Source: Spirochaetia bacterium (lineage in GTDB: Bacteria; Spirochaetota; Spirochaetia; CADAEX01). Taken from it: a DNA stretch of 64,000 bases. The position numbers and the translations under genes were made by a program. Location of the stretch: NCBI GenBank assembly GCA_963662265.2, contig CAXXHA010000003.1, positions 1-64,000 on the forward strand. Reading direction: 5' to 3'. Position 1 is the first letter of the stretch. The number at the start of each line of letters is the position of its first letter. The notes beneath the pieces are model-generated. The model saw only the letters and a program-made list of their open reading frames with translations. It made no database searches and was not told the DNA's origin. Below are positions 52,980-64,000 of the stretch, piece after piece.

Positions 52980-54864
52980 TCTGCCGGATAAAGCTGTTTA
53001 TCTGCAGTTTTGATAATTCTTCCGACAGAAAACAGTTCCTGGAAAATGCTGAAAAAAAATATAAAGATACTCCCGGTTTTAAAAAAACATTTATTGATTT
53101 TATTTTGTTCAACAGATTGGAGAATTTACTGGGGGCGGATATTATTATTTCTGAACCGGTTAAAGAAAGGCAGCTTAAAATTCACGGTTTTCCTGACATA
53201 AGAACATTCAGTGAACTGGCTAATATCAGTGCTGTTTTTGAGAAGCTTTCTGAATGCCTGGGTAATACTGATCCGGCAGATACAGCACTTCCTCCTTCTC
53301 TTTTTTTCAGGAAAGGTGATACAGTCGCGGAAATATTCAATACAGAAAATACCAATTCTGCTGAGATATCTGATATTATTGATTTCGATTCAGACAGTTT
53401 TAATGTTGAAAGATCTGAAAACATGCAGATATGCAAGGCTAGAAAGAGCGGCTATCTAGTTTCGTCCATCGGAAGACTGTCAATTTCCTCACCAGTGGTA
53501 TTTTCGAGTGTGAGAAAACAGAAGTATATGTTTATTATTTTCCTGTCATATACAGGAAGAATGATCTTCTTGATTATATTTATAACTGGTTTAGCCAGTT
53601 TTCTGTAAAATACCCCGAAGCCCCGTTCCGTGAATTACCTGACAGAAAGTATCTTGAGAATTCTGATGCGAACAGGTTTCTGGCGATAAAAGGTAATACA
53701 GCTGTAAGCGGAAGGGATGCTTCAATTGAAAAACTATGCTGCTATACTGACAGTATTGCTGATGAAGAGGGGAGAATCGATCACAGATCTTTCAAAAGAT
53801 ACACAGTTGTAGACAAGGACCAGCTTCTTTTCAGAAAATTTAAAAAACTTGATCCTGTCCCCGGAGTCGATATTTACGGCAACCGGATTGAAGTAGATGA
53901 AAGCAGCGACAGGGAAATAAAAGCGGAAGGATTAATCAGGGAAGAATCTGAAGGGGAGTATATAAACTATTATTCTGATTCTGCAGGGCTCTTTTCTTTC
54001 GAAGAAAACCGGGCTCTGGTTGAAGAGGTGATGATAGTCGACGGAAATGTTGATTATAGGACAGGCAATATTGATTTTCCGAATAATGTTAATATCAGGG
54101 GTGATGTTGCCCCCGGGTTCAATGTCAGAAGCGGAAAAAATGTAATTGTCGAAGGCTGTCTTGATAACGGTTCATTTGTCAAATGCGGGGGGGACCTTGT
54201 TGTAAAAAACGGGATAATCGGCGAGGGGACCAGGATTGAATGTGAAGGTGATGTTTATGCTAATTATTTTTCAGAGGCAGAGCTTTACTGCAGCGGTAAG
54301 ACTGTAATTGAAAAATATATGATGGGCGGTTCAGTTTTTTCGGAAAAAATGATTGAAGTACATGGAAACGGAATAAAAAAACCTGAAATATCTTCTGTTT
54401 TCGGAGGCAGATACTACTCAATGGGGAGTATTTCAGTTCATTCGGCAGGAAATATGAACAGAAGCACTCTTCTTTGCTGCGGCTATAATCCATATCTGGA
54501 TTTTAAACACAGGGAAACAGTCCGCGCGTGTGCAGCAGTTGACAGTGAAATCTCCGGTATTTTAAACCTGCTTCGCGGCAGGTACGGTATAACTGAAAAC
54601 CCTGAAACTGCAAAAAATAAAACAGCAGATGAAAAAAGACTTATAGTGGAAAAACTGAAGAAACTGAAAGAATTGAATAAAACACGGAACAGCCTTTCAG
54701 AGCTTGGAAACAAAATACTGTCAGATATTTATTCGCATGAAAACAGCAATATATCTGTTTCAATACAAAAATATTTAATTCCTGTTGTCGAAATCCAGAT
54801 GATCAGGGATATTCAGGTTATCAGGGAAAAGAGAAGCAGTGAAATTTTTAAACTGCCTGATTAA
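52972..54864 (+). CDS. FapA/DUF342 family protein (several apparent frameshifts in the 5' half)
   Basis: PGVDIYGN and VDGNVDYRTGNIDF..NVNIRGDV beta-helix repeats, then a coiled coil. Confidence 0.8.
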
Positions 54865-54989
54865 TAATAATATTGTCAAATCATTGTTTAAACAATGTTT
54901 CATGCAGATATAAATACTTGATTATTAAGCGGATATACCTTTAATATTGTATCGATATTATACAAAAACTTATAAATAAGAGGCTGCCA

Positions 54990-56243
54990 TTGGGGACGAA
55001 GAATTCAAAGATATTGTATTTTCTTATAATGCTGATATTATTCCTGATTATTTCCGGATTGCTGATTGACGGTCCGGGAAATGCATTGAGGAGTTTTTTC
55101 AATCTTCAGGTACTGCCTGCAAGGCTTTTAAATGATTTTATTCAGACAGGAAGTATCGGGGGAACATTAATAAATGCTGCTCTTGTAGGAGCTATCGGCC
55201 TGTTCCTTACAGTAATTCTCAAGGTACAGCTGTCAGGTCCGACTTTTGCTGCAATTTTCACAATGATAGGGTTTGGATTTTTCGGAAAGACAGTTTTTAA
55301 TATTATACCTGTAATTACAGGTGTATATCTTTCTGCAAAAATTGTCAGAAAAATGCTTCGTGAATACATAATTATTGCGCTTTTCGGAACTGCACTCGGC
55401 CCTCTTGTAAGCCTTATAAGTTATGAGATTGGTTTTACAGGGATAAAGGCAGTCATTGCAGGAATAACAGGCGGAATAGCTGCAGGTTTTTTTCTTCCTG
55501 CAATTGCGGTTGCAATGCTCCATCTGCATCAGGGATATAATCTATACAACATGGGGCTGTCATGCGGGTTTTTCGCATTATTTGCAGCTTCGTTTGTAAA
55601 AGCGACAGGTTACAGGTTTGAGACTGCTGTTGAATGGTATACTGAAAAATCACTGGTCTTGCAGTTTCTTGTACCTGTAATATCTGCTGTCCTTATAACA
55701 GCAGGTTTAATATCGGGAGGGAAAAAGTGTTTAAAAGATTTCCGCGATATACAGAAACTGTCAGGACGTCTTCCTTCCGATTTCATGGATCTCTGTTCAA
55801 TAGAGGGATCTCTTTTAAACAGCGGGCTTATCGGGCTTGCAGGCTCTCTGTATATCTATATAATCGGTGGGGATTTCAACGGTCCTGTAATCGGAGGATT
55901 ATTTACAATAATGGGGTTTGCCGCATTCGGAACCCATTTTAAAAATTCATGGCCGGTTGTACTTGGTGTAATTCTCAGTTCCCTGCTGTTTTCCCAAAAC
56001 CTTTCATCTCCCGGACCTGTTCTTGCTGTAATTTTCTGTACAACTCTTGCTCCCCTTGCCGGGCAGTTTGGTATTTTTACCGGTATAACAGCAGGATTTA
56101 TACACCTTGTAATGGTGCTTCAGACAGGCAGCTGGCAGGGGGGATTAAACCTCTACAATAACGGGTTTGCAGGCGGAATTACTGCTACATTAATAGTTTC
56201 TGTTATACAATGGTACCGGATTAATAAATCTGATTATTCATAA
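54990..56243 (+). CDS. DUF1576-like duplicated membrane protein
   Basis: Repeated halves: GPTFAAIFTMIGFGFFGK / GPVIGGLFTIMGFAAFGT and QGYNLYNMG / GGLNLYNNGF. Confidence 0.82.
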   Translation: MGTKNSKILYFLIMLILFLIISGLLIDGPGNALRSFFNLQVLPARLLNDFIQTGSIGGTLINAALVGAIGLFLTVILKVQLSGPTFAAIFTMIGFGFFGKTVFNIIPVITGVYLSAKIVRKMLREYIIIALFGTALGPLVSLISYEIGFTGIKAVIAGITGGIAAGFFLPAIAVAMLHLHQGYNLYNMGLSCGFFALFAASFVKATGYRFETAVEWYTEKSLVLQFLVPVISAVLITAGLISGGKKCLKDFRDIQKLSGRLPSDFMDLCSIEGSLLNSGLIGLAGSLYIYIIGGDFNGPVIGGLFTIMGFAAFGTHFKNSWPVVLGVILSSLLFSQNLSSPGPVLAVIFCTTLAPLAGQFGIFTGITAGFIHLVMVLQTGSWQGGLNLYNNGFAGGITATLIVSVIQWYRINKSDYS

Positions 56244-56266
56244 TATAATCTATCAGGAGTTTTTCA

Positions 56267-56644
56267 TTGAAAAGAAAAGATTTTATCCTGCATCTTATCG
56301 GGGAGATTGCAAACTATATTCTGGAAGAAGATCCCAGGAGAATGGTGATTTCACTGCATCAGGAAACAGACGGGCTTCACCTCTGTATACTTGATGATAA
56401 TTCTCATTCTGATGAGGAAATAGAAAAGATGGAAAAGGCTTTAAACAGCCAGAAAAGACCGGAGCTTTCCGGGTATTACGGTGCCATGACCGGGCATGAT
56501 CTTCTCGGCTCTTCCCGGCTCAATCTTATCGGGTGGCAGATCAAGCATGCTGATGTCAGCCGGACAGACAGCGGAATAAAGATTGACCTGTGGCTGGGCG
56601 GAGACAGGTTTGACAGTAATAATTTCAATATACCGGAAAAATAA
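56267..56644 (+). CDS. Hypothetical cytoplasmic partner of the DUF1576 protein
   Basis: 125-aa ORF with RBS AGGAG and TTG start; KRPELSGYYGAMTG..LNLIG motif. Confidence 0.7.
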   Translation: MKRKDFILHLIGEIANYILEEDPRRMVISLHQETDGLHLCILDDNSHSDEEIEKMEKALNSQKRPELSGYYGAMTGHDLLGSSRLNLIGWQIKHADVSRTDSGIKIDLWLGGDRFDSNNFNIPEK

Positions 56645-56719: not shown

Positions 56720-58132
56720 TTATTTTTTTACAATAGTTTTTTCCGGAGCATCAAAAACCATTGTTGCTCCCTCAATATTGATTACATCCCCGGGTTTCAG
56801 TACCCGTTTTTTTACAGCCCTGTTGTTAACCCTTACCTCATTGCTTGAAACAAGTGTGTAGCTGTCTGTTTTTTCATCCCTTACTATTGTCGCATGTGAT
56901 TCCCTGATTGACGGAATCCCTGTTATTGTATAATCAGCAGATGCTGATCCTCCGATTACAGTATTCTGTGACGAGATAAGCATTGTCTTCTCAAGAGCCC
57001 TTCCTCTTCCCCGGCCTGAAAGCAGCTGTGTCAGTTCCGCCTGATGCGCCTCTTTTTCCAGTTTAAGGAACAGCAATACAGCAAGTATTATTACACCTGT
57101 AATTATAAGAATAAGGGCGGGAAGTGGTGAACTGAGACTTCCTGTTCCGAATATAAGTGCCGGTGAATATGACATGCTGTCATCTGCCGTATTATTGAGA
57201 TTCACATCAACTGAAGGAGCCTTTGAAAAAGTAACAGGAACCCTGACTCTTATTCTGAACTCCTCATTTATGCTCTTTCTTATATTTTCATAAACACCTG
57301 TGAGTTCCTCTTCATTTGATGCATCGAAAACTCGTCCTCCCGATGTTACAGCTATCTCAGCAAGGGGGATGTCTTTCTCTTTTGAAAAATTCACGGCATA
57401 AAGTGTTACTTCGTTTTCGGAAAGCGCTTCTGCTGCCTGACCAGGCAGGTAACTTTTATCTCCGAGTTCAGGGTGCTGTTTTCCCGATACCTTGAAGTAC
57501 GGGTAATTCTCTCCATCGGAGAGAAGTATAATTGCTTTCCTTCCGGCAGTTTTTCCCATTTCTCCTGCAGCCTTTATTATTGTGTAATAAAGCTCTGTAT
57601 ATGATTCCTCCCTGGTCGGTTTTTCAATTGTCTCAAATATATCGTTTATGCTGCCCAGGTTCACGCCTGGCTGAGCGAGCAGGGAGAAATCCCTGTTGAA
57701 AACAGCAACACCCCCAGAGTCCCTGTCCTGATCAAGTCTGGAAAAAAAGGTCCTTGCAGCCCTGACTGCAGCTGAAATCCTTTCAGTTTCCGGATCTTTA
57801 TCAGTTTTCTCATACATGCTTCCTGAATTATCCAGAAGCAGCATAAATGTAATTCCATCTGAGCTTTCACTGTTTTTTCCGGTTTCAAGCACTTTAAGCG
57901 GCTTTGACCCGGATTCATCTGTCTGTGTAAGACTGATTGATGATCCGGGATTTTTTATTTCAAGAGGTTTGCCCCCCTTATCTGTTATCCTGACATAGCA
58001 GTCGACTGTTGAGGATATAAAAAGCCTGGAAGTATCAAGCTGTGATATTGATATATTTTCCCCCCATGCAGGAGAAGATGCGATTAACATGATAAAAGCT
58101 GTTTTTAATATTGATTCAAATGTTTTTCTCAT
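56720..58132 (-). CDS. Signal peptide-VWA-TM-FHA protein
   Basis: MIDAS DNSGS...T...LSDGEN; TM PALILIITGVIILAVLLF; C-terminal FHA-like region (IG..D..I...SHA..VN..LKPGDVINI). Confidence 0.88.
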   Translation of the reverse strand: MRKTFESILKTAFIMLIASSPAWGENISISQLDTSRLFISSTVDCYVRITDKGGKPLEIKNPGSSISLTQTDESGSKPLKVLETGKNSESSDGITFMLLLDNSGSMYEKTDKDPETERISAAVRAARTFFSRLDQDRDSGGVAVFNRDFSLLAQPGVNLGSINDIFETIEKPTREESYTELYYTIIKAAGEMGKTAGRKAIILLSDGENYPYFKVSGKQHPELGDKSYLPGQAAEALSENEVTLYAVNFSKEKDIPLAEIAVTSGGRVFDASNEEELTGVYENIRKSINEEFRIRVRVPVTFSKAPSVDVNLNNTADDSMSYSPALIFGTGSLSSPLPALILIITGVIILAVLLFLKLEKEAHQAELTQLLSGRGRGRALEKTMLISSQNTVIGGSASADYTITGIPSIRESHATIVRDEKTDSYTLVSSNEVRVNNRAVKKRVLKPGDVINIEGATMVFDAPEKTIVKK

Positions 58133-58142
58133 TTCTTTCTCC

Positions 58143-59030
58143 TTAACGCGCAGGCAGGAACAGGAGTTTCACACTTCCTATCTGTATGACATCTTCATAC
58201 TGTAGACGCTTCTTACCTGTTTTTTCCTCATTTATGAAAACTTCCCCCTCAAGTGATTCAAGTACTACTTCATCCCTTGTTGAGACAAAAAGAGCATGGC
58301 TGCCTTTAAGTCCAGAGTAATCCTCAAAATCAATTGCACTTTTTTTGTCAGATCCCAGAACTGTTTTTTTCATAATCAGAACATATTCCTTGCCCCTGAC
58401 AGGGCCTGTCAGCACTTTGAGCATTCCGAAGGCTTTCACCGATTCAAACAGCGAATAGAAAAGCCCTATTGAACCTCCCATGATAAGGAAGCCTGTTCCT
58501 CTTGCTGCAAATCCGCTTTTCATGAAAGTTGTTATGAATTCAAGAACAGCTCCCCCTGCAAATCCTCCGCTTAATCCTCCTACCACTCCGATCCATACCC
58601 TGTTAGGTGACCGGCTTCTTATCCCCTCTATTGCTCCTACTACAGCTCCCAGAATCATCCATCCGACAGCCCTGCTGATCGGTAGTATCAGATTTTCCGC
58701 AGTTTTCAATGTGAATATATCAGAGCTGATAAGCGCACTCAGAAGACCCTGTATCAGAAGAACGACAAGAATCCCGGACGCTGCTCCTGTTGCAGCCCCT
58801 GCAAGGCCTCCCTGTATACTCCTCTTCCTGTCTGAAACAAGAATCCCCTCCGCTGTTCCGAAACTGAATCCGAAAAAGAGTCCAAGCAGGGCACCTTCTG
58901 AAAGGGAGAGAACCAGGTAGCCGCCTATTCTGCTTCCTGCAAGGAGCAGCAGTTCCATGCTTCCCCATGCGCAGAGTGCCCCTGCAAGCCCCAGTATTAC
59001 CATCAGTATTTTTCTTATTATTAAATTCAT
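58143..59030 (-). CDS. Gly-rich polytopic membrane protein with C-terminal FHA domain
   Basis: About six GxxxG-rich TM helices; LKVLTGPVRGKEY...SHA...FIN...LQYEDVIQIG. Confidence 0.85.
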   Translation of the reverse strand: MNLIIRKILMVILGLAGALCAWGSMELLLLAGSRIGGYLVLSLSEGALLGLFFGFSFGTAEGILVSDRKRSIQGGLAGAATGAASGILVVLLIQGLLSALISSDIFTLKTAENLILPISRAVGWMILGAVVGAIEGIRSRSPNRVWIGVVGGLSGGFAGGAVLEFITTFMKSGFAARGTGFLIMGGSIGLFYSLFESVKAFGMLKVLTGPVRGKEYVLIMKKTVLGSDKKSAIDFEDYSGLKGSHALFVSTRDEVVLESLEGEVFINEEKTGKKRLQYEDVIQIGSVKLLFLPAR

Positions 59031-59045: not shown

Positions 59046-60629
59046 TTATTCCCTGTACAGTCCCGCCTGAAGAACCATAACATCCTGGCTGTTGTTAATT
59101 TTTAGTGAAAAGATTTTATCCCTGTATCCGGATGCTTTTACAAGTATTTTTATTACTCTTCCGGACATCAGTCTTTCAGCCTCTTCAATAGCCACCCATT
59201 TATTTCCCTCTCTGAGAAATATTTCCGCTTCGGAAATGATGTCATCTCCTGTGACTGCATCCCTGACATTCGGAATAAATTTCAGAGGCTGCGGATCTCT
59301 TTTGTGCCTGTAGTAAGTCACAGCTTCTCCGCCCCTGGTCTTTGATTTTTTCCATGGTTCGACAGTGAATGAGTTCCAGAAAACTTCGTTTGAAGCTGTA
59401 ATTTTCACCCTGTAGTTACCTTGCTTCAGAAAAACCGGAAGTGAAGTGACTGATGAAAATGATTCGCTGCTGTCGTTAATTAAAAAGAGAGGCATGTCAT
59501 CAACATCAGGTATTTTTTTATCATCATCAACAAAAATTGATATATTTACAGAATCTGCATCAAGAGGAGGAATATCGGCAGGTGTTTTTACAGAAAACAC
59601 AACTCTTCCGTATGTATCAGGAAACAGAAGTCCCCTGTACAGCTTGAAATTATATACAGCTGATCCTGCTGTGAGAAAAATAAGCAGAAGCACTGATGCT
59701 GCAGTTATTTTCAATCCTTTCCTCTTAAGCTTTATTCTTTCAGGGATTGTGATTTCCTTTACCTGAGCTGCCTCCGCAGTACTCTGAACAAGCTGTTCTG
59801 AGTTCCATTTCTTTATTGTTTTTTCAAGCAGCAGAATAACAGGATCGAGATTTTTGTATCTCTTTTCCCTGTTTGTTCTCATGGCTTTCCTTATGAAGCG
59901 GAGCAGGTTCCTGTCAATTCCCGGTATTATCTTGTCCGGTGAAGTATATTTACCTGTCTGTATGTTTTTCATCAGTTCGGGTGAGTAGCTGCCGGGAAAA
60001 GGTTTTTTCCCTGTGAGCATCTCATATGCCAGTACTCCAAGTGAGTATATATCTGCCCTGAGATCAACGTTGCGTGAATCTTTAAACTGTTCGGGAGGCA
60101 TATACCCCGGAGTCCCGAGTGTCATCCCGTCAATAGTAAGCCCCTCTTCCTGGCTCTCTTCCGATGAGGCAATTCCGAAGTCTACAATTTTGACAGCGCC
60201 CTCTTTTGAAACAAGTATGTTTGCAGGCTTTATATCCCTGTGAACAACTTTTTTTGAATGTGCATATTTAAGGGCTCTTGCAGTATTCAGAAGTATGTAT
60301 GCTGCAAGGCTTGAGTGGATATAGCGGTTGTTCAGTATCATCTCTTCGATTGACATTCCGTCAACATATTCCATGACAAGGTAATATGATGATCCCTCTT
60401 TAAAATGATCATACATGCTTACTATATGATCATGTCTGAAATCCATCAGTATTCTTGCTTCCCGCTTAAATCTCTCTGTTATCGCTTTCCTGCTGGAGAG
60501 GGTCAGCTTCTTGATAATTACCGGCCGCTTGAGGGTGGGGTGCTCAGCCTTGAATACTGCGCCCATTCCCCCCTTTGCAATAAGTGATTCAATCTCATAT
60601 TTTCCTATTGATTCAGGTAATTTTGCCAT
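59046..60629 (-). CDS. Hanks-type Ser/Thr protein kinase with one TM helix and an extracytoplasmic beta domain
   Basis: KGGMGAV, VIIK, RFKREA, HRDIKPAN, DFG, GTPGYMPPEQ and DIYSLG; ATG at 60629. Confidence 0.95.
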   Translation of the reverse strand: MAKLPESIGKYEIESLIAKGGMGAVFKAEHPTLKRPVIIKKLTLSSRKAITERFKREARILMDFRHDHIVSMYDHFKEGSSYYLVMEYVDGMSIEEMILNNRYIHSSLAAYILLNTARALKYAHSKKVVHRDIKPANILVSKEGAVKIVDFGIASSEESQEEGLTIDGMTLGTPGYMPPEQFKDSRNVDLRADIYSLGVLAYEMLTGKKPFPGSYSPELMKNIQTGKYTSPDKIIPGIDRNLLRFIRKAMRTNREKRYKNLDPVILLLEKTIKKWNSEQLVQSTAEAAQVKEITIPERIKLKRKGLKITAASVLLLIFLTAGSAVYNFKLYRGLLFPDTYGRVVFSVKTPADIPPLDADSVNISIFVDDDKKIPDVDDMPLFLINDSSESFSSVTSLPVFLKQGNYRVKITASNEVFWNSFTVEPWKKSKTRGGEAVTYYRHKRDPQPLKFIPNVRDAVTGDDIISEAEIFLREGNKWVAIEEAERLMSGRVIKILVKASGYRDKIFSLKINNSQDVMVLQAGLYRE

Positions 60630-60630
60630 T

Positions 60631-61653
60631 TTACTTACTCTCCGGTTGTTTTGTATTATCAATATAATGCAGACCAAAATTATTTTCAAAGCCTGATGCA
60701 GTTTTGAGGAAAACAACAGGATATCTTAGCGGATTATGTATCTGAATATATTTTCCGCCGGCCCTCAATCTGTACATTTCAGTCACAGGCCTGTGCCCGC
60801 CGTACATCATTGCCTTATTGTTGCCCGGAAAGTATTCATCGAGGTATTTTTTTACAGTACCTTGTTCTGATTCCCCGTTGTCTGTCCATGTAAGATCATA
60901 TATTATTTTTCTCTTCTCATAACAGGATATAATTTCATCTCTTGTGTAATAATTTCTCGGTTCAGCATGAGTTATGCAGCAGAATTTTCCTACAGCCATT
61001 ACAGGCAGGAACTTTTCAAAATCATAGTACCTGCTTAAGACAGATGTTCCCAGGAAACGCTTTGACCAGTTTTTCACCATTTCCCCTTCTGATGTGAATT
61101 TGGCAAATGACCGGTTGTCTTCTGTTGTCTCATTCATGATATTTTCATGATTGCCCTTTAGAAAATGAAAATTTTCACAGAAGCGTGTCTTCCAGTCCAT
61201 GACAATAAGCATCAGATTGAGACTGTCTCTCATTTCACTGTCTATTGCCTTGTGCCTGACAAATCCCCCCCTGTATTCACTGTATGCTTCAATCCATCTT
61301 GCTCTTTTCAGCCCCTCGCTGTGAAAACCGTCTCCGGCACATACTACCTGTATTTTACCCTCTTCAAGCAGCTTTAAAACAGGCTTATCCATTCCGGGCG
61401 GAATCCAGTATGCAAGTGTCCTCATGTAATCCACTCTTGCATGCAGATCAGGCACAATAACAAGAGGCAGGTCTTTAAGCTGAATGAGTCCGCCCGGATA
61501 TCCGCCCCTGTCACGGGGACGGATAAGCGGATTTTCATTATCCATTACTTTTTTAACCTGCTTAAGTGCGGCCTGCAGTTTTTCAGGTTCCGGGTATTTC
61601 CTTCTCCTGATCAGTTCCTCCAGCCGGAAATAAGCGCTGCCTGTTTTTAACAT
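60631..61653 (-). CDS. Calcineurin-like metallophosphoesterase (PPP-type phosphatase)
   Basis: PDLHA, GDGFH, KGNHEN, THAE, LTWTD and GGHRP. Confidence 0.88.
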   Translation of the reverse strand: MLKTGSAYFRLEELIRRRKYPEPEKLQAALKQVKKVMDNENPLIRPRDRGGYPGGLIQLKDLPLVIVPDLHARVDYMRTLAYWIPPGMDKPVLKLLEEGKIQVVCAGDGFHSEGLKRARWIEAYSEYRGGFVRHKAIDSEMRDSLNLMLIVMDWKTRFCENFHFLKGNHENIMNETTEDNRSFAKFTSEGEMVKNWSKRFLGTSVLSRYYDFEKFLPVMAVGKFCCITHAEPRNYYTRDEIISCYEKRKIIYDLTWTDNGESEQGTVKKYLDEYFPGNNKAMMYGGHRPVTEMYRLRAGGKYIQIHNPLRYPVVFLKTASGFENNFGLHYIDNTKQPESK

Positions 61654-61662
61654 ATCTTTTTA

Positions 61663-62196
61663 TTATTCACTTATTAATGTTTTGTTTATTTCTATAAACT
61701 CATCTGTAAGCTGATGAGTGACCTGAGTTAGAAGTTCGTTTGCTTCTTCATATTCAATTGATTCCCTGACAATTGCTATTCTGTAAACAGGGGAGCTTTT
61801 ATCAATCGGCCCGTTTTTGAATTTTACAGCCTCATCAATGCTTATATCTTCTGCAAGCTGTGAATTACTCTGCTGAAGGAAATCCGGAACATCTGTCCTG
61901 AATCCGACACTTGTATATTCTGTCTGTCTTCCGTTTTCTTCAAGCGGTCCCAGTTTTATCAGCGAGCCTGAATAGGTCATTACAAGAGCTCCTCTAGTCT
62001 CTGATGCGGAAAAAGAATCCGCAGGTTCAAGTTCATTTTCCTCTATCTGTCTGTTGAAAACCTCATCTTTTTCAAGCCATCCGCCTGCCAGTATTTCAAG
62101 AGGATCTTCAGTGATGTCTGAAAGCTGTATATTGCCTGAAAGCTGTTTCAGGTGGTTCTGGACTCTTTCCGATACCTTAGAAAAATTGTTTTCCAT
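61663..62196 (-). CDS. Hypothetical protein, stand-alone copy of an uncharacterised ~170-aa domain
   Basis: Paralogous to the N-terminus of 62604-63485; RBS GAGGGAG. Confidence 0.8.
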   Translation of the reverse strand: MENNFSKVSERVQNHLKQLSGNIQLSDITEDPLEILAGGWLEKDEVFNRQIEENELEPADSFSASETRGALVMTYSGSLIKLGPLEENGRQTEYTSVGFRTDVPDFLQQSNSQLAEDISIDEAVKFKNGPIDKSSPVYRIAIVRESIEYEEANELLTQVTHQLTDEFIEINKTLISE

Positions 62197-62273
62197 TTTA
62201 TTTCTCCCTCAGCAGATAATCTGCTTTTTTAAACTACCAATACGGTTTAAAATGTAATTACATATTTTCTGTT

Positions 62274-62415
62274 AAGCACATACTCCGGGGTATGTGCTTC
62301 TGATAGGAATGGATTGTATGTCGGGTCTGAGACTCAAAAACCATTCATATCCAAACCTTTCAATTTTTTTAAATTATGTTGCAAGCTACGGGATCAGACC
62401 CTCCTTGCGAATAAA
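62274..62415 (+). mobile_element. ~140-bp structured repeat (MITE/PATE-like), copy 2
   Basis: Shares AGGAATGGATTGTATGTCGGGTC, GACTCAAAAAC and GCAAGCT.CGGG...AGACCC...TGCGAATAAAT with the reverse complement of 23960-24095; 5' hairpin AAGCACATAC/GTATGTGCTT. Confidence 0.72.
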
Positions 62416-62603
62416 TTAATTTATAACACAGATAATACACCATTTTCCAGAAATGTCCATAAAAATCGGTGAAATTTGAAAAAAATATGATATAATCATG
62501 AAAAACGGCTTGTTTCAGGTATTTTTTTACTGTTAAGGTATGTAAAATACATGAAAAGCCAGTTAAAAAAGACCTTGAAAAAGTCTTATACAGGAGTTGT
62601 AGT

Positions 62604-63485
62604 ATGCAGATTGAAAAGCTGCCTGAAGCAGTACAGGCACATCTTTTGCATTTAATCAGGAGTTCTGCCCTCCCTGATACTCCGGAATTCCGCTCCCGTC
62701 TTGCCGGAATCTGGAACAGGAAATGCACCTTGTTTGAACAGCAGATAAATTATCTTGAAATGGAGCTTGTTGATAAAGTTGATACAAACGAATCAATGGC
62801 AATGATAATTCTCACATACTCAGGTTCTATAATAAGTATAGGCCCTCTTAAGGAAACCAGGGATGTTGAATATGCGAGTATACACTTGAGGGCGGATGTT
62901 CCGAAATCAGTTGTCGTGACTGAGACAAATATCGACGGAGAGCTTCTCCGCGACAAGCCGGTATGTTTTAAAACAGGCGCAATAAAGAAGACTTCTCCCG
63001 CCTTTATGATAGCTGTTTGCGACAGTAATCTTGATCCCTCTGTTCAGTCTGAAAGAATCAGGGAAGCAATGATTTATCTTACAAACGGATTTCTCAAGAT
63101 AAACCAGTCGATACATATTGACCGTAAGAGTGTGCCTGATCATTTTACCGCGAAATCAATGGCAAGATATATTGCGAAAAGACATGACCTGACAGGTGCT
63201 GCTGTGCAGAATATTCTGGAAGATTTTTACTATCTTATTGAAACAGGAATGCTTCTCGGGGAAACTGTTCCGCTCGGCAAAATAGGACGGCTCTCGCTGA
63301 AGAAGAAAGAGGCCCAGAAAGCCAGAATAATAAGGCACCCTGAAACAGGAGAGGAGATTACTGTCAGGTCTAAGCCTTCAATGTATGTTCCCAGGATATC
63401 GTTCAGCAGCCATATAAAAGATAAGGCAGCTTCCCTTCCTGATGACAGCAATTCAATAATCAGGATGGACTATGATGATGAATGA
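62604..63485 (+). CDS. Uncharacterised domain fused to a C-terminal HU/IHF-like DNA-binding domain
   Basis: C-terminal KSMARYIAKRHDLT...GETVPLGKIGRL...ARIIRHPETGEEITV..KP...PRISFSSHIKD; RBS AGGAG. Confidence 0.88.
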   Translation: MQIEKLPEAVQAHLLHLIRSSALPDTPEFRSRLAGIWNRKCTLFEQQINYLEMELVDKVDTNESMAMIILTYSGSIISIGPLKETRDVEYASIHLRADVPKSVVVTETNIDGELLRDKPVCFKTGAIKKTSPAFMIAVCDSNLDPSVQSERIREAMIYLTNGFLKINQSIHIDRKSVPDHFTAKSMARYIAKRHDLTGAAVQNILEDFYYLIETGMLLGETVPLGKIGRLSLKKKEAQKARIIRHPETGEEITVRSKPSMYVPRISFSSHIKDKAASLPDDSNSIIRMDYDDE

Positions 63486-63664
63486 AAATTCAGATCTTAT
63501 GCTTTTTTTGTGGAAATAAATTATACACATGCTTGATGTAAATCTGAATTCTGTTCAATTTATTTGCATGACAGATTTAATGCCCTGCGGGCACTTTGCA
63601 CCCTGCTGTGTGTTTTATCGCATTCTGTATGAATTAGATGGTATTAAAACTGCTATAAAATTAT

Positions 63665-63721
63665 TTCATCGCAGACCAGTTTAACCAGCTGCCTTCAGCA
63701 GTTGTGTTGATCTGCGATGAA
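63665..63721. terminator. Long hairpin between convergent genes
   Basis: TTCATCGCAGA / TCTGCGATGAA enclosing CAGCTGC / GCAGTTG. Confidence 0.5.
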
Positions 63722-63782
63722 TGGAATTCATATTACATCCTGCAGCATGTAAACATATTTATCAGGTGCTGAAAACAGATAA

Positions 63783-64000
63783 TTAAATAAACTCTGCAAT
63801 TTCATCAAGCTGCTTTCTCTTTTTGTCACTTTTCTTTACAAATCCTTTCGGTGTGTATCCGAGAGGTGTTATCACGAAAACCGTTTCCCCCTCTTCGAGT
63901 TCAAGCACTTTTTTAAGAATATCAGGATCGAATGCTGCAATCCAGCATGTCCCTATCTCCTCGTTTTCCGCGGCAAGAATCATATGGTCCATGGCTATTG
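63783..64000 (-). CDS. Nitroreductase family protein, C-terminal part
   Basis: DHMILAAENEEIGTCWI, TPLGY and KRK; 5' end lies outside the window. Confidence 0.88.
   Translation of the reverse strand, partial: IAMDHMILAAENEEIGTCWIAAFDPDILKKVLELEEGETVFVITPLGYTPKGFVKKSDKKRKQLDEIAEFI

Follow-up and report, generated by a model that had tools for sequence, protein, structure and literature searches.

The window analysed here, i.e. the first 64,000 nucleotides of contig CAXXHA010000003.1 from the assembly GCA_963662265.2 of a Spirochaetia bacterium, contains two head-to-head genes whose products share a conserved domain, called X hereafter. One copy is a free, acidic protein and the other is the N-terminal part of a protein ending in an HU-type DNA-binding domain (X-HU). 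The free copy heads an operon that also encodes a PPP-like phosphatase, a Hanks-type Ser/Thr kinase and two membrane proteins carrying FHA domains, one of them together with a vWA domain. That the X proteins belong to this kinase/phosphatase/FHA/vWA module is well supported by our results, and X and X-HU probably carry a signal from the envelope to the chromosome.

A conserved domain occurs free and fused to HU

The free X gene is located on the minus strand (61663-62196; 177 aa) and the X-HU gene on the plus strand (62604-63485; 293 aa), both open reading frames (ORFs) being found, with a 407-bp spacer between them, where a preliminary description of this DNA had placed them. Residues 1-175 of X-HU (62604-63128, plus strand) align with the free protein, the BLASTP alignment showing 57 identities over 168 positions (34%), 56% positives and 2 gaps (E 2e-29). 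The six motif pairs from which the relationship had been deduced are all present in this pairwise alignment: VQNHL/VQAHL, LAGGWLEK/LAGIWNRK, MTYSGSLIKLGPL/LTYSGSIISIGPL, EYTSVGFRTDVP/EYASIHLRADVP, FKNGPIDKSSP/FKTGAIKKTSP and LTDEFIEINKT/LTNGFLKINQS. The proposed domain is a real and conserved one, of about 175 residues, which occurs both free and fused to HU.

The window pair are the only two X copies of the source genome (3.77 Mb, 41 contigs, 90.6% complete). Free X has 22 homologues of 40-100% identity, all of them without a name or called "hypothetical", and 145 representative-cluster matches are obtained with X-HU, including fused forms of about 280-300 aa. The named organisms among X homologues are Spirochaetia, Breznakiella homolactica and one metagenome-assembled genome labelled Gammaproteobacteria. 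Domain X is so far essentially confined to Spirochaetota.

The preliminary description had considered the domain to be unrecognised, and this holds true: no Pfam family matches X at E ≤ 1 in either window protein, nor does any NCBIfam family at the same threshold, and no family covers X in any of 45 diverse members scanned individually. The C-terminal extensions of these 45 members contain HU in six cases and DUF2442 in one, besides scattered single matches of E 0.01 or weaker. One divergent X copy matches PF24081 PH_SLA1 with an E of 3e-4 and 21.4 bits, under the 27-bit cut-off. When the X family profile is compared by sequence to solved structures, no match is obtained, the best E being 0.4. 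In the literature searched, outside of which lie subscription journals and the supplements of PMC5499826, neither domain X, nor its free/HU-fused pairing, nor its strict operon association is described, whereas the Hanks kinase, PPP-like phosphatase, FHA and vWA kit and the HU domain itself are of already known kinds.

X-HU does end, as had been claimed, in a full HU/IHF-type domain. Its residues 182-274 (63147-63425, plus strand) match PF00216 Bac_DNA_binding with 43.5 bits (cut-off 22.4) over profile positions 2-88 of 90, and with 46.1 bits in the genome search. The arm consensus is NPxTGEEIxIxAKP in 25 aligned X-HU sequences, and HPETGEEITV in the window copy; an RNPxTG-like, Pro-containing motif is a conserved feature of the HU beta-arm. 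As compared to known HU/IHF proteins, X-HU has the same PF00216 domain and arm, and differs by its 175-aa N-terminal domain of a new family and by its tie to one kinase operon. A separate canonical HU is encoded on another contig of the source genome (94.5 bits), and X-HU is therefore a second, specialised HU. The basic HU domain is directly followed, in many X-HU orthologues, by a short acidic tail, which in the window copy is 15 aa long with a net charge of -5 (63438-63482, plus strand). The net charge of this tail ranges from +1 to -10 in the 25 aligned sequences and is -4 or lower in 13 of them. The tail of X-HU is reminiscent of the auto-inhibitory acidic tails found in other DNA benders.

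Organisation and conservation of the kinase operon

Four genes follow free X on the minus strand. The first, beginning 9 nt past the free X stop, encodes the PPP-like metallophosphoesterase (60631-61653; 340 aa). It is followed by the Hanks-type kinase, with a transmembrane (TM) segment and a C-terminal extracytoplasmic part (59046-60629), by a polytopic membrane protein with a C-terminal FHA domain (TM-FHA; 58143-59030; 295 aa) and, as the last gene of the operon, by a protein composed of a signal peptide, a vWA domain, a TM segment and a cytoplasmic FHA domain (vWA-TM-FHA; 56720-58132; 470 aa). The gaps among the five genes are of only 9, 1, 15 and 10 nt.

The kinase matches Pkinase (PF00069) with 185.7 bits over profile positions 1-252 of 263; its likely start is the ATG at 60629, 1 nt past the phosphatase stop, the listed ORF extending to a TTG at 60716. 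The phosphatase scores 19.3 bits against Pfam Metallophos (E 0.0017), below the 21.5 cut-off. Its motifs D69xH71, G107D108, G167N168H169E170, H229 and G286H287 are at least 95% conserved in 23 orthologues, and correspond to the metal-ligand motifs of metallophosphoesterases, DxH, GD, GNH[ED], H and GH. Judged by its sequence, the protein would at best be a divergent member of these enzymes. TM-FHA matches FHA with 23 bits and Yop-YscD_cpl with 36.6 bits, and vWA-TM-FHA matches VWA_2 with 41.4 bits and FHA with 29.1 bits.

The gene order was examined in 20 loci taken from other genomes of the phylum, onto each of which the window proteins were mapped. X, the Ser/Thr kinase, TM-FHA and vWA-FHA are found in this order and on one strand in all 14 loci with an operon-type free X (13 of the 20, plus that of genome G077), and these loci span at least 11 family codes. 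In 13 of them, X and the kinase are separated by the phosphatase gene. At the remaining locus (L047, G139:C2), the kinase directly follows X; the phosphatase is not found with the window protein there, nor in G029 and G186. The module can thus do without the phosphatase, which is undetected in these three genomes although they contain free X.

An anti-phage defence function was considered for the six proteins and ruled out. When searched with the PADLOC defence models, five of them match no family at all, and the kinase matches generic kinase models only.

Distribution across Spirochaetota

X was then looked for in 401 genomes sampled across the phylum. Among the matches listed, out of the 102 counted by the profile search, those covering X fall in 62 genomes, the rest matching HU columns only. 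All class counts given below are among the matches listed, as sorted by profile coverage and open-frame length, with eight matches lying outside of these, and they describe a pattern rather than a statistical test, related genomes not being independent. The operon-type free X is present in 48 genomes, X-HU in 34 plus one partial, and both together in 31. A divergent free form is found in 12 genomes and an X domain with another C-terminal domain (X-CT, see below) in 5.

The two genes are adjacent (less than 600 bp) in 13 of the 31 genomes containing both, divergently in 12 and in tandem in one, and in 8 others X-HU lies 4-8 kb away, at the operon's far end. When both are on the same contig, X-HU is consequently at most 8 kb from free X in 21 of 24 cases. 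A functional link between free X and X-HU is backed by this co-occurrence and linkage. G077:C16 has a different arrangement, with two free X genes flanking the operon (L059:8126-8671 and L060:8132-8641), the second beyond the far end, where others carry X-HU; this genome also has X-HU and X-CT on other contigs.

The association of X with the membrane FHA proteins is tighter. TM-FHA is present in 50 of the 401 genomes and operon-type X, free or as X-HU, in 51, with an overlap of 50. The lone genome with X and without TM-FHA, G078, is 82% complete and has its locus on a short contig, and none of the 401 genomes has TM-FHA without X. The phosphatase is more widespread: it is found in 87 genomes, 42 of which are without operon-type free X. 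Ten loci from such genomes contain no X (best hidden Markov model E 0.23), no TM-FHA and no vWA-FHA, and their phosphatase-kinase pair is intact in 9 cases. As the phosphatase occurs without the X and membrane FHA genes, X tracks the FHA membrane proteins and not just the kinase. X, X-HU and both membrane FHA proteins thus behave as a single unit of inheritance, added to a phosphatase-kinase core of wider distribution.

At four of the ten loci, a stand-alone FHA gene (114-123 aa, FHA 80-82 bits) occupies the slot of X upstream of the phosphatase-kinase pair. These four genes all belong to family code f2 (L061:7525-7893, L062:7988-8329, L067:7699-8040 and L070:8638-8979).

Age of the duplication and other architectures of X

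The tree built from 116 X domains has a branch, supported at 95% by SH-aLRT, that separates 68 free, 10 X-CT and 2 other rows from 24 of the 27 X-HU rows. The other three X-HU rows branch as sister to the free clade, and eight rows classed as free fall outside of it: four belong to the divergent group and four, of 153-195 aa, are possibly fragments. Each window copy groups with orthologues of other families and not with its partner, and the pair therefore goes back to an old duplication that has been maintained.

X has at least five architectures: the free form, X-HU, X-CT, vWA-TM-X-CT and X-DUF2442 (P0095). In X-CT, it is followed by an unannotated, helical C-terminal domain of about 120 aa without any Pfam match, as in P0084, P0099, P0103, P0108, P0110, P0118, P0135 and P0141 (295-305 aa), and also at L053:9442-10449. 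The 701-aa protein P0126 has the vWA-TM-X-CT architecture, X being at the position that FHA occupies in the vWA-TM-FHA protein of the window. No longer fusion partner of X is found among the 8000 candidates scored in a search with the free-X alignment, which is weak evidence.

The divergent free X copies adjoin folP, def or era. In G044, such a copy (L051:9104-9631) is next to folP, and a gene behind it in the same orientation (L051:9908-11026) encodes a protein of 372 aa that starts with HU (PF00216, 84.4 bits). This is an adjacency and not a fusion, and it is seen at one of four such loci.

Predicted fold and conserved residues of X

The free X protein is predicted by AlphaFold2 with high confidence (pLDDT 88.9, pTM 0.85) to fold into three helices at the N-terminus, then eight antiparallel strands in succession and a C-terminal helix of 26 residues; for the core on its own (residues 55-177), the pLDDT is 91.0. 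We take X to be an undescribed, cytoplasmic alpha/beta domain with this predicted form. The comparison of fold that the preliminary description had called for was made with Foldseek against the PDB, and reveals no solved relative: nothing is retrieved at E ≤ 0.001, either with the full model or with the core model.

Several candidate relatives were rejected. PrfA, Sm, RanBD and spike-NTD appear as weak Foldseek rows only, with a TM-score of at most 0.37. The matches given by the ESM Atlas have scores of 0.81 for free X and 0.87 for the X part of X-HU, below the 0.9 threshold for a lead, and among the clusters obtained for the latter (DUF269, Robl_LC7, MAPKK1_Int), the order of Roadblock elements mismatches the model. 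X as a divergent FHA was also rejected at the level of sequence, none of the 45 X proteins matching FHA at E ≤ 1 while the true FHA proteins of the operon are detected. No FHA chain is among the 50 structural-match rows shown for X, a list that does not exclude an FHA fold.

Despite a mean column identity of 25%, eight residues are invariant in the 45 X sequences (W40, K43, S76, G77, S78, Y94, P104 and S135), and eight more positions, including T74, R90, S96, R100, F167 and N171, are at least 90% conserved. When the two clades are considered separately, 17 positions are conserved at 85% or more in both, i.e. W40, K43, T74, S76, G77, S78, R90, Y94, S96, R100, D102, V103, P104, S135, F167, N171 and neighbours. 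Only the fused clade conserves P7, Q47, L51 and L70, together with Q148, R151, E154, T160 and G162 along one face of the C-terminal helix, and only the free clade conserves A37, G98, G129 and P130. T74, G77, S78, R90, Y94, R100, D102, S135 and F167 persist in the most divergent copies, outside of kinase operons.

The preliminary description had pointed to TYSGS and K[ST]SP as conserved and plausible phosphosites. Their conservation is borne out, T74, S76, G77, S78, S96 and S135 being at least 96% conserved in each clade, as counted in 35 free and 25 fused sequences. They look less, however, like typical exposed phosphosites than like part of a core with a structural or ligand-binding role: in the model they form a tight beta-turn and strand in a block with a pLDDT of about 94, and they are invariant in all architectures. 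The idea of phosphorylation nevertheless gains indirect support, since free X is predicted to share a transcript with a Hanks kinase, a PPP-like phosphatase and two proteins with FHA domains.

Divergent spacer and genes adjoining the operon

The AT-rich region between the two X genes (62197-62603; 407 bp, GC 0.36) contains a near-perfect 26-bp palindrome (62274-62299), with 13-nt arms that are 92% complementary and no loop, which could be an operator or a hairpin. Promoter-like sites are present on both strands of this spacer and are not enriched, 2 being found as compared to 2.0 expected by chance from shuffles, and a search with Rfam over 61500-63800 gives nothing near any gathering score. 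On the low-coordinate side of the operon's end, the window contains at 54028-56644 a FapA-family gene (PF03961), a gene whose membrane protein product matches DUF1576 (PF07613) with 329.8 bits, and an ORF of 125 aa that belongs to no family.

A possible DNA-binding output of the kinase module

A signal from the envelope to the chromosome is proposed because X travels with the kinase, phosphatase and FHA operon and one of its copies is fused to HU. X-HU would be the natural output, as it is the sole component of the module with a DNA-binding domain. One possible mechanism is the following. The kinase and the phosphatase would set the phosphorylation state of the X domains, or of a partner bound by X, and the membrane-anchored FHA domains would capture the phosphorylated form. 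X-HU would thereby shift between DNA and a membrane complex, and this shift could alter local DNA bending, compaction or transcription. The acidic free X, sharing the X surface without HU, might engage the same kinase, phosphatase and FHA proteins as a competitor or buffer. Taken as a whole, with the X proteins as dedicated parts of the module, X-HU as its DNA-binding output and FHA capture as the mechanism, this reading is the one that we favour, though tentatively, its chance of being right in all these respects lying a little under one half. It is supported by the nearly perfect co-distribution of X with the FHA proteins, as opposed to the kinase core, and by X standing in the place of FHA in two architectures, namely the slot taken by FHA at X-less loci and P0126.

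A bolder version, which we regard as speculative and rather unlikely, is that X is a new phospho-signalling adaptor fold doing the job of FHA. The HU fusion would then provide a one-step route from an envelope kinase to chromosome architecture, a kinase/FHA membrane complex reversibly tethering or releasing an HU-type DNA bender, with free X as a threshold-setting decoy.

Several observations weigh against the favoured reading. The sampled genomes include kin, and independent events are therefore fewer than the co-distribution counts suggest. X-HU is more than 8 kb from free X on the same contig in 3 of the 31 genomes with both, and on another contig in 7. X-HU is not seen in 17 of the 48 genomes with free X among the listed rows, 11 of these being less than 93% complete and six 93-96% complete, and it may thus be dispensable. 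The contexts of X-CT are variable and unrelated (near era/def/fmt, GGDEF, fumarase or a Tyr phosphatase). The best-conserved Ser/Thr residues are in structured parts of the model, predicted with high confidence, and are invariant also in the copies beside folP, def or era, away from any kinase operon; an intrinsic role in structure or ligand binding would account for this better than operon-specific phosphosites. Finally, homology, architecture, operon structure, co-distribution and the age of the duplication are observed, whereas every step of binding and phosphorylation, i.e. phosphorylation of X, binding by FHA and the effect on HU, is inferred.

The preliminary description had favoured another role for free X, which would heterodimerise with X-HU or titrate it as an anti-factor or DNA mimic. 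On this view, free X would contact X-HU directly, X against X or, by mimicking DNA with its acidic surface, at the arms of HU, and so remove it from DNA, and the operon would be a mere neighbour or an upstream regulator. Charge fits with this possibility. The free copy is strongly acidic, as had been stated (net -19, pI 4.37), and this is a property of the family: the median net charge of 35 free X orthologues is -17 (range -26 to +3). The X part of 25 X-HU orthologues is far less acidic, with a median of -6 (-2 in the window), and their HU part is basic, with a median of +7 (+6 in the window). Free X thus has the strong negative charge that is a feature of DNA-mimic anti-HU proteins, as judged by net charge and not by surface pattern. 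Such acidic HU inhibitors do exist, as reported for Gp46 of phage SPO1 (PMC8892312) and DMP12 of Neisseria (PMC3643605), which are, like free X in its position beside an HU-type protein, small and strongly acidic. The proximity of the two genes, which are at most 8 kb apart in 21 of the 31 genomes with both, and a core that weakly resembles the dimerising N-domain of NucS would also be expected of interacting partners. Unlike Gp46 and DMP12, to which no sequence or fold match is obtained in our searches, free X is a paralogue of a part of its putative target, and it is present in the 17 genomes without a detected X-HU, where it therefore needs a role of its own. It also co-distributes more tightly with TM-FHA (47 of 48 genomes) than with X-HU (31 of 48). 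A complex prediction between X of X-HU (residues 1-175, 25 rows) and free X (35 rows) gives a score of 0.00 in both runs, made without controls, and speaks neither for nor against binding. We consider titration of X-HU by free X to be possible but unlikely.

X could alternatively be a sensor of a small molecule or anion, or an enzyme, with an invariant polar pocket, in which case ligand binding rather than phosphorylation of X would regulate the phospho-signalling genes and HU. Ser-Gly-Ser turns with Arg and Lys are typical phosphate or anion sites. The 16 invariant or nearly invariant positions in an otherwise variable family, and the persistence of nine positions in copies away from kinase operons, would be well explained in this way. 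As X resembles no known ligand-binding or catalytic fold in the searches run, and no metabolic genes are consistently linked to it, such a function seems improbable to us.

Doubt is greater still for X as a nucleic-acid-binding, dimerising barrel similar to the N-terminal domain of NucS/EndoMS (PDB 2vld, 5gkj), which is counted among the closest known systems to X; it would add a DNA-structure specificity to X-HU, and free X would act on DNA or RNA alone. The NucS N-domain is DNA-binding and dimerising, and its eight strands and one helix (PMC8228993) match the element count of X, which is moreover fused to a DNA-binding domain. Sequence identity is however of only 10-11%, no sequence profile links X to any solved structure, and a free protein with a net charge of -19 is unlikely to bind nucleic acids.

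That X is a housekeeping protein unrelated to the kinase, phosphatase and FHA genes, its neighbourhood being a historical accident, is very hard to reconcile with the order kept in all 14 operon loci, the overlap with TM-FHA in 50 of 51 genomes of many family codes and the intergenic gaps of 1-15 nt, even though divergent free X copies lie beside folP, def or era and X-CT contexts vary.

Comparison with known signalling modules

FHA domains read phospho-threonine, and the type VI PpkA-PppA-Fha1 pathway is a kinase/phosphatase/FHA signalling module. In Sulfolobus, ArnA (FHA), ArnB (vWA), the kinases ArnC/D and PP2A form a system in which the FHA and vWA proteins, driven by kinases and a PPP phosphatase, control a transcriptional programme (PMC7472852), and in Deinococcus, the DRA0331-0334 operon is reported to encode a module of vWA/FHA/Hanks kinase/phosphatase type (preprint 10.64898/2026.01.23.701218). 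The window operon is similar to these three in that a eukaryote-like Ser/Thr kinase, a partner phosphatase, FHA readers and a vWA protein are encoded together and would feed a regulatory output, and it shares with the Sulfolobus system a phosphatase of PPP type. It differs from them in that both its FHA domains are membrane-anchored, its vWA domain probably lies in the periplasm according to prediction, and X is added twice, one copy being fused to HU. Nothing similar to X is described in the texts examined on the Sulfolobus and Deinococcus modules.

The tuning of an HU protein by a Ser/Thr kinase also has a precedent: phosphorylation of mycobacterial HupB by Ser/Thr protein kinases lowers its DNA binding, as stated in a review (PMC4754617). 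In a survey of multi-domain HU proteins, the words "kinase" and "FHA" are absent from the main text and the spirochaete passages deal with other HU clades (PMC5499826); the X-HU architecture may be listed in its supplements.

Significance

As the X family has neither a Pfam or NCBIfam entry nor a clear solved relative, its description is useful for annotation and structural genomics. Modules of Hanks kinases and FHA proteins are common in bacteria, but few of them have a known output, and little of spirochaete signal transduction has been mapped. The six genes described here form a compact and conserved system, in which a likely HU-type output is marked by the same domain that heads the operon, and this makes a link between a kinase and the nucleoid testable.

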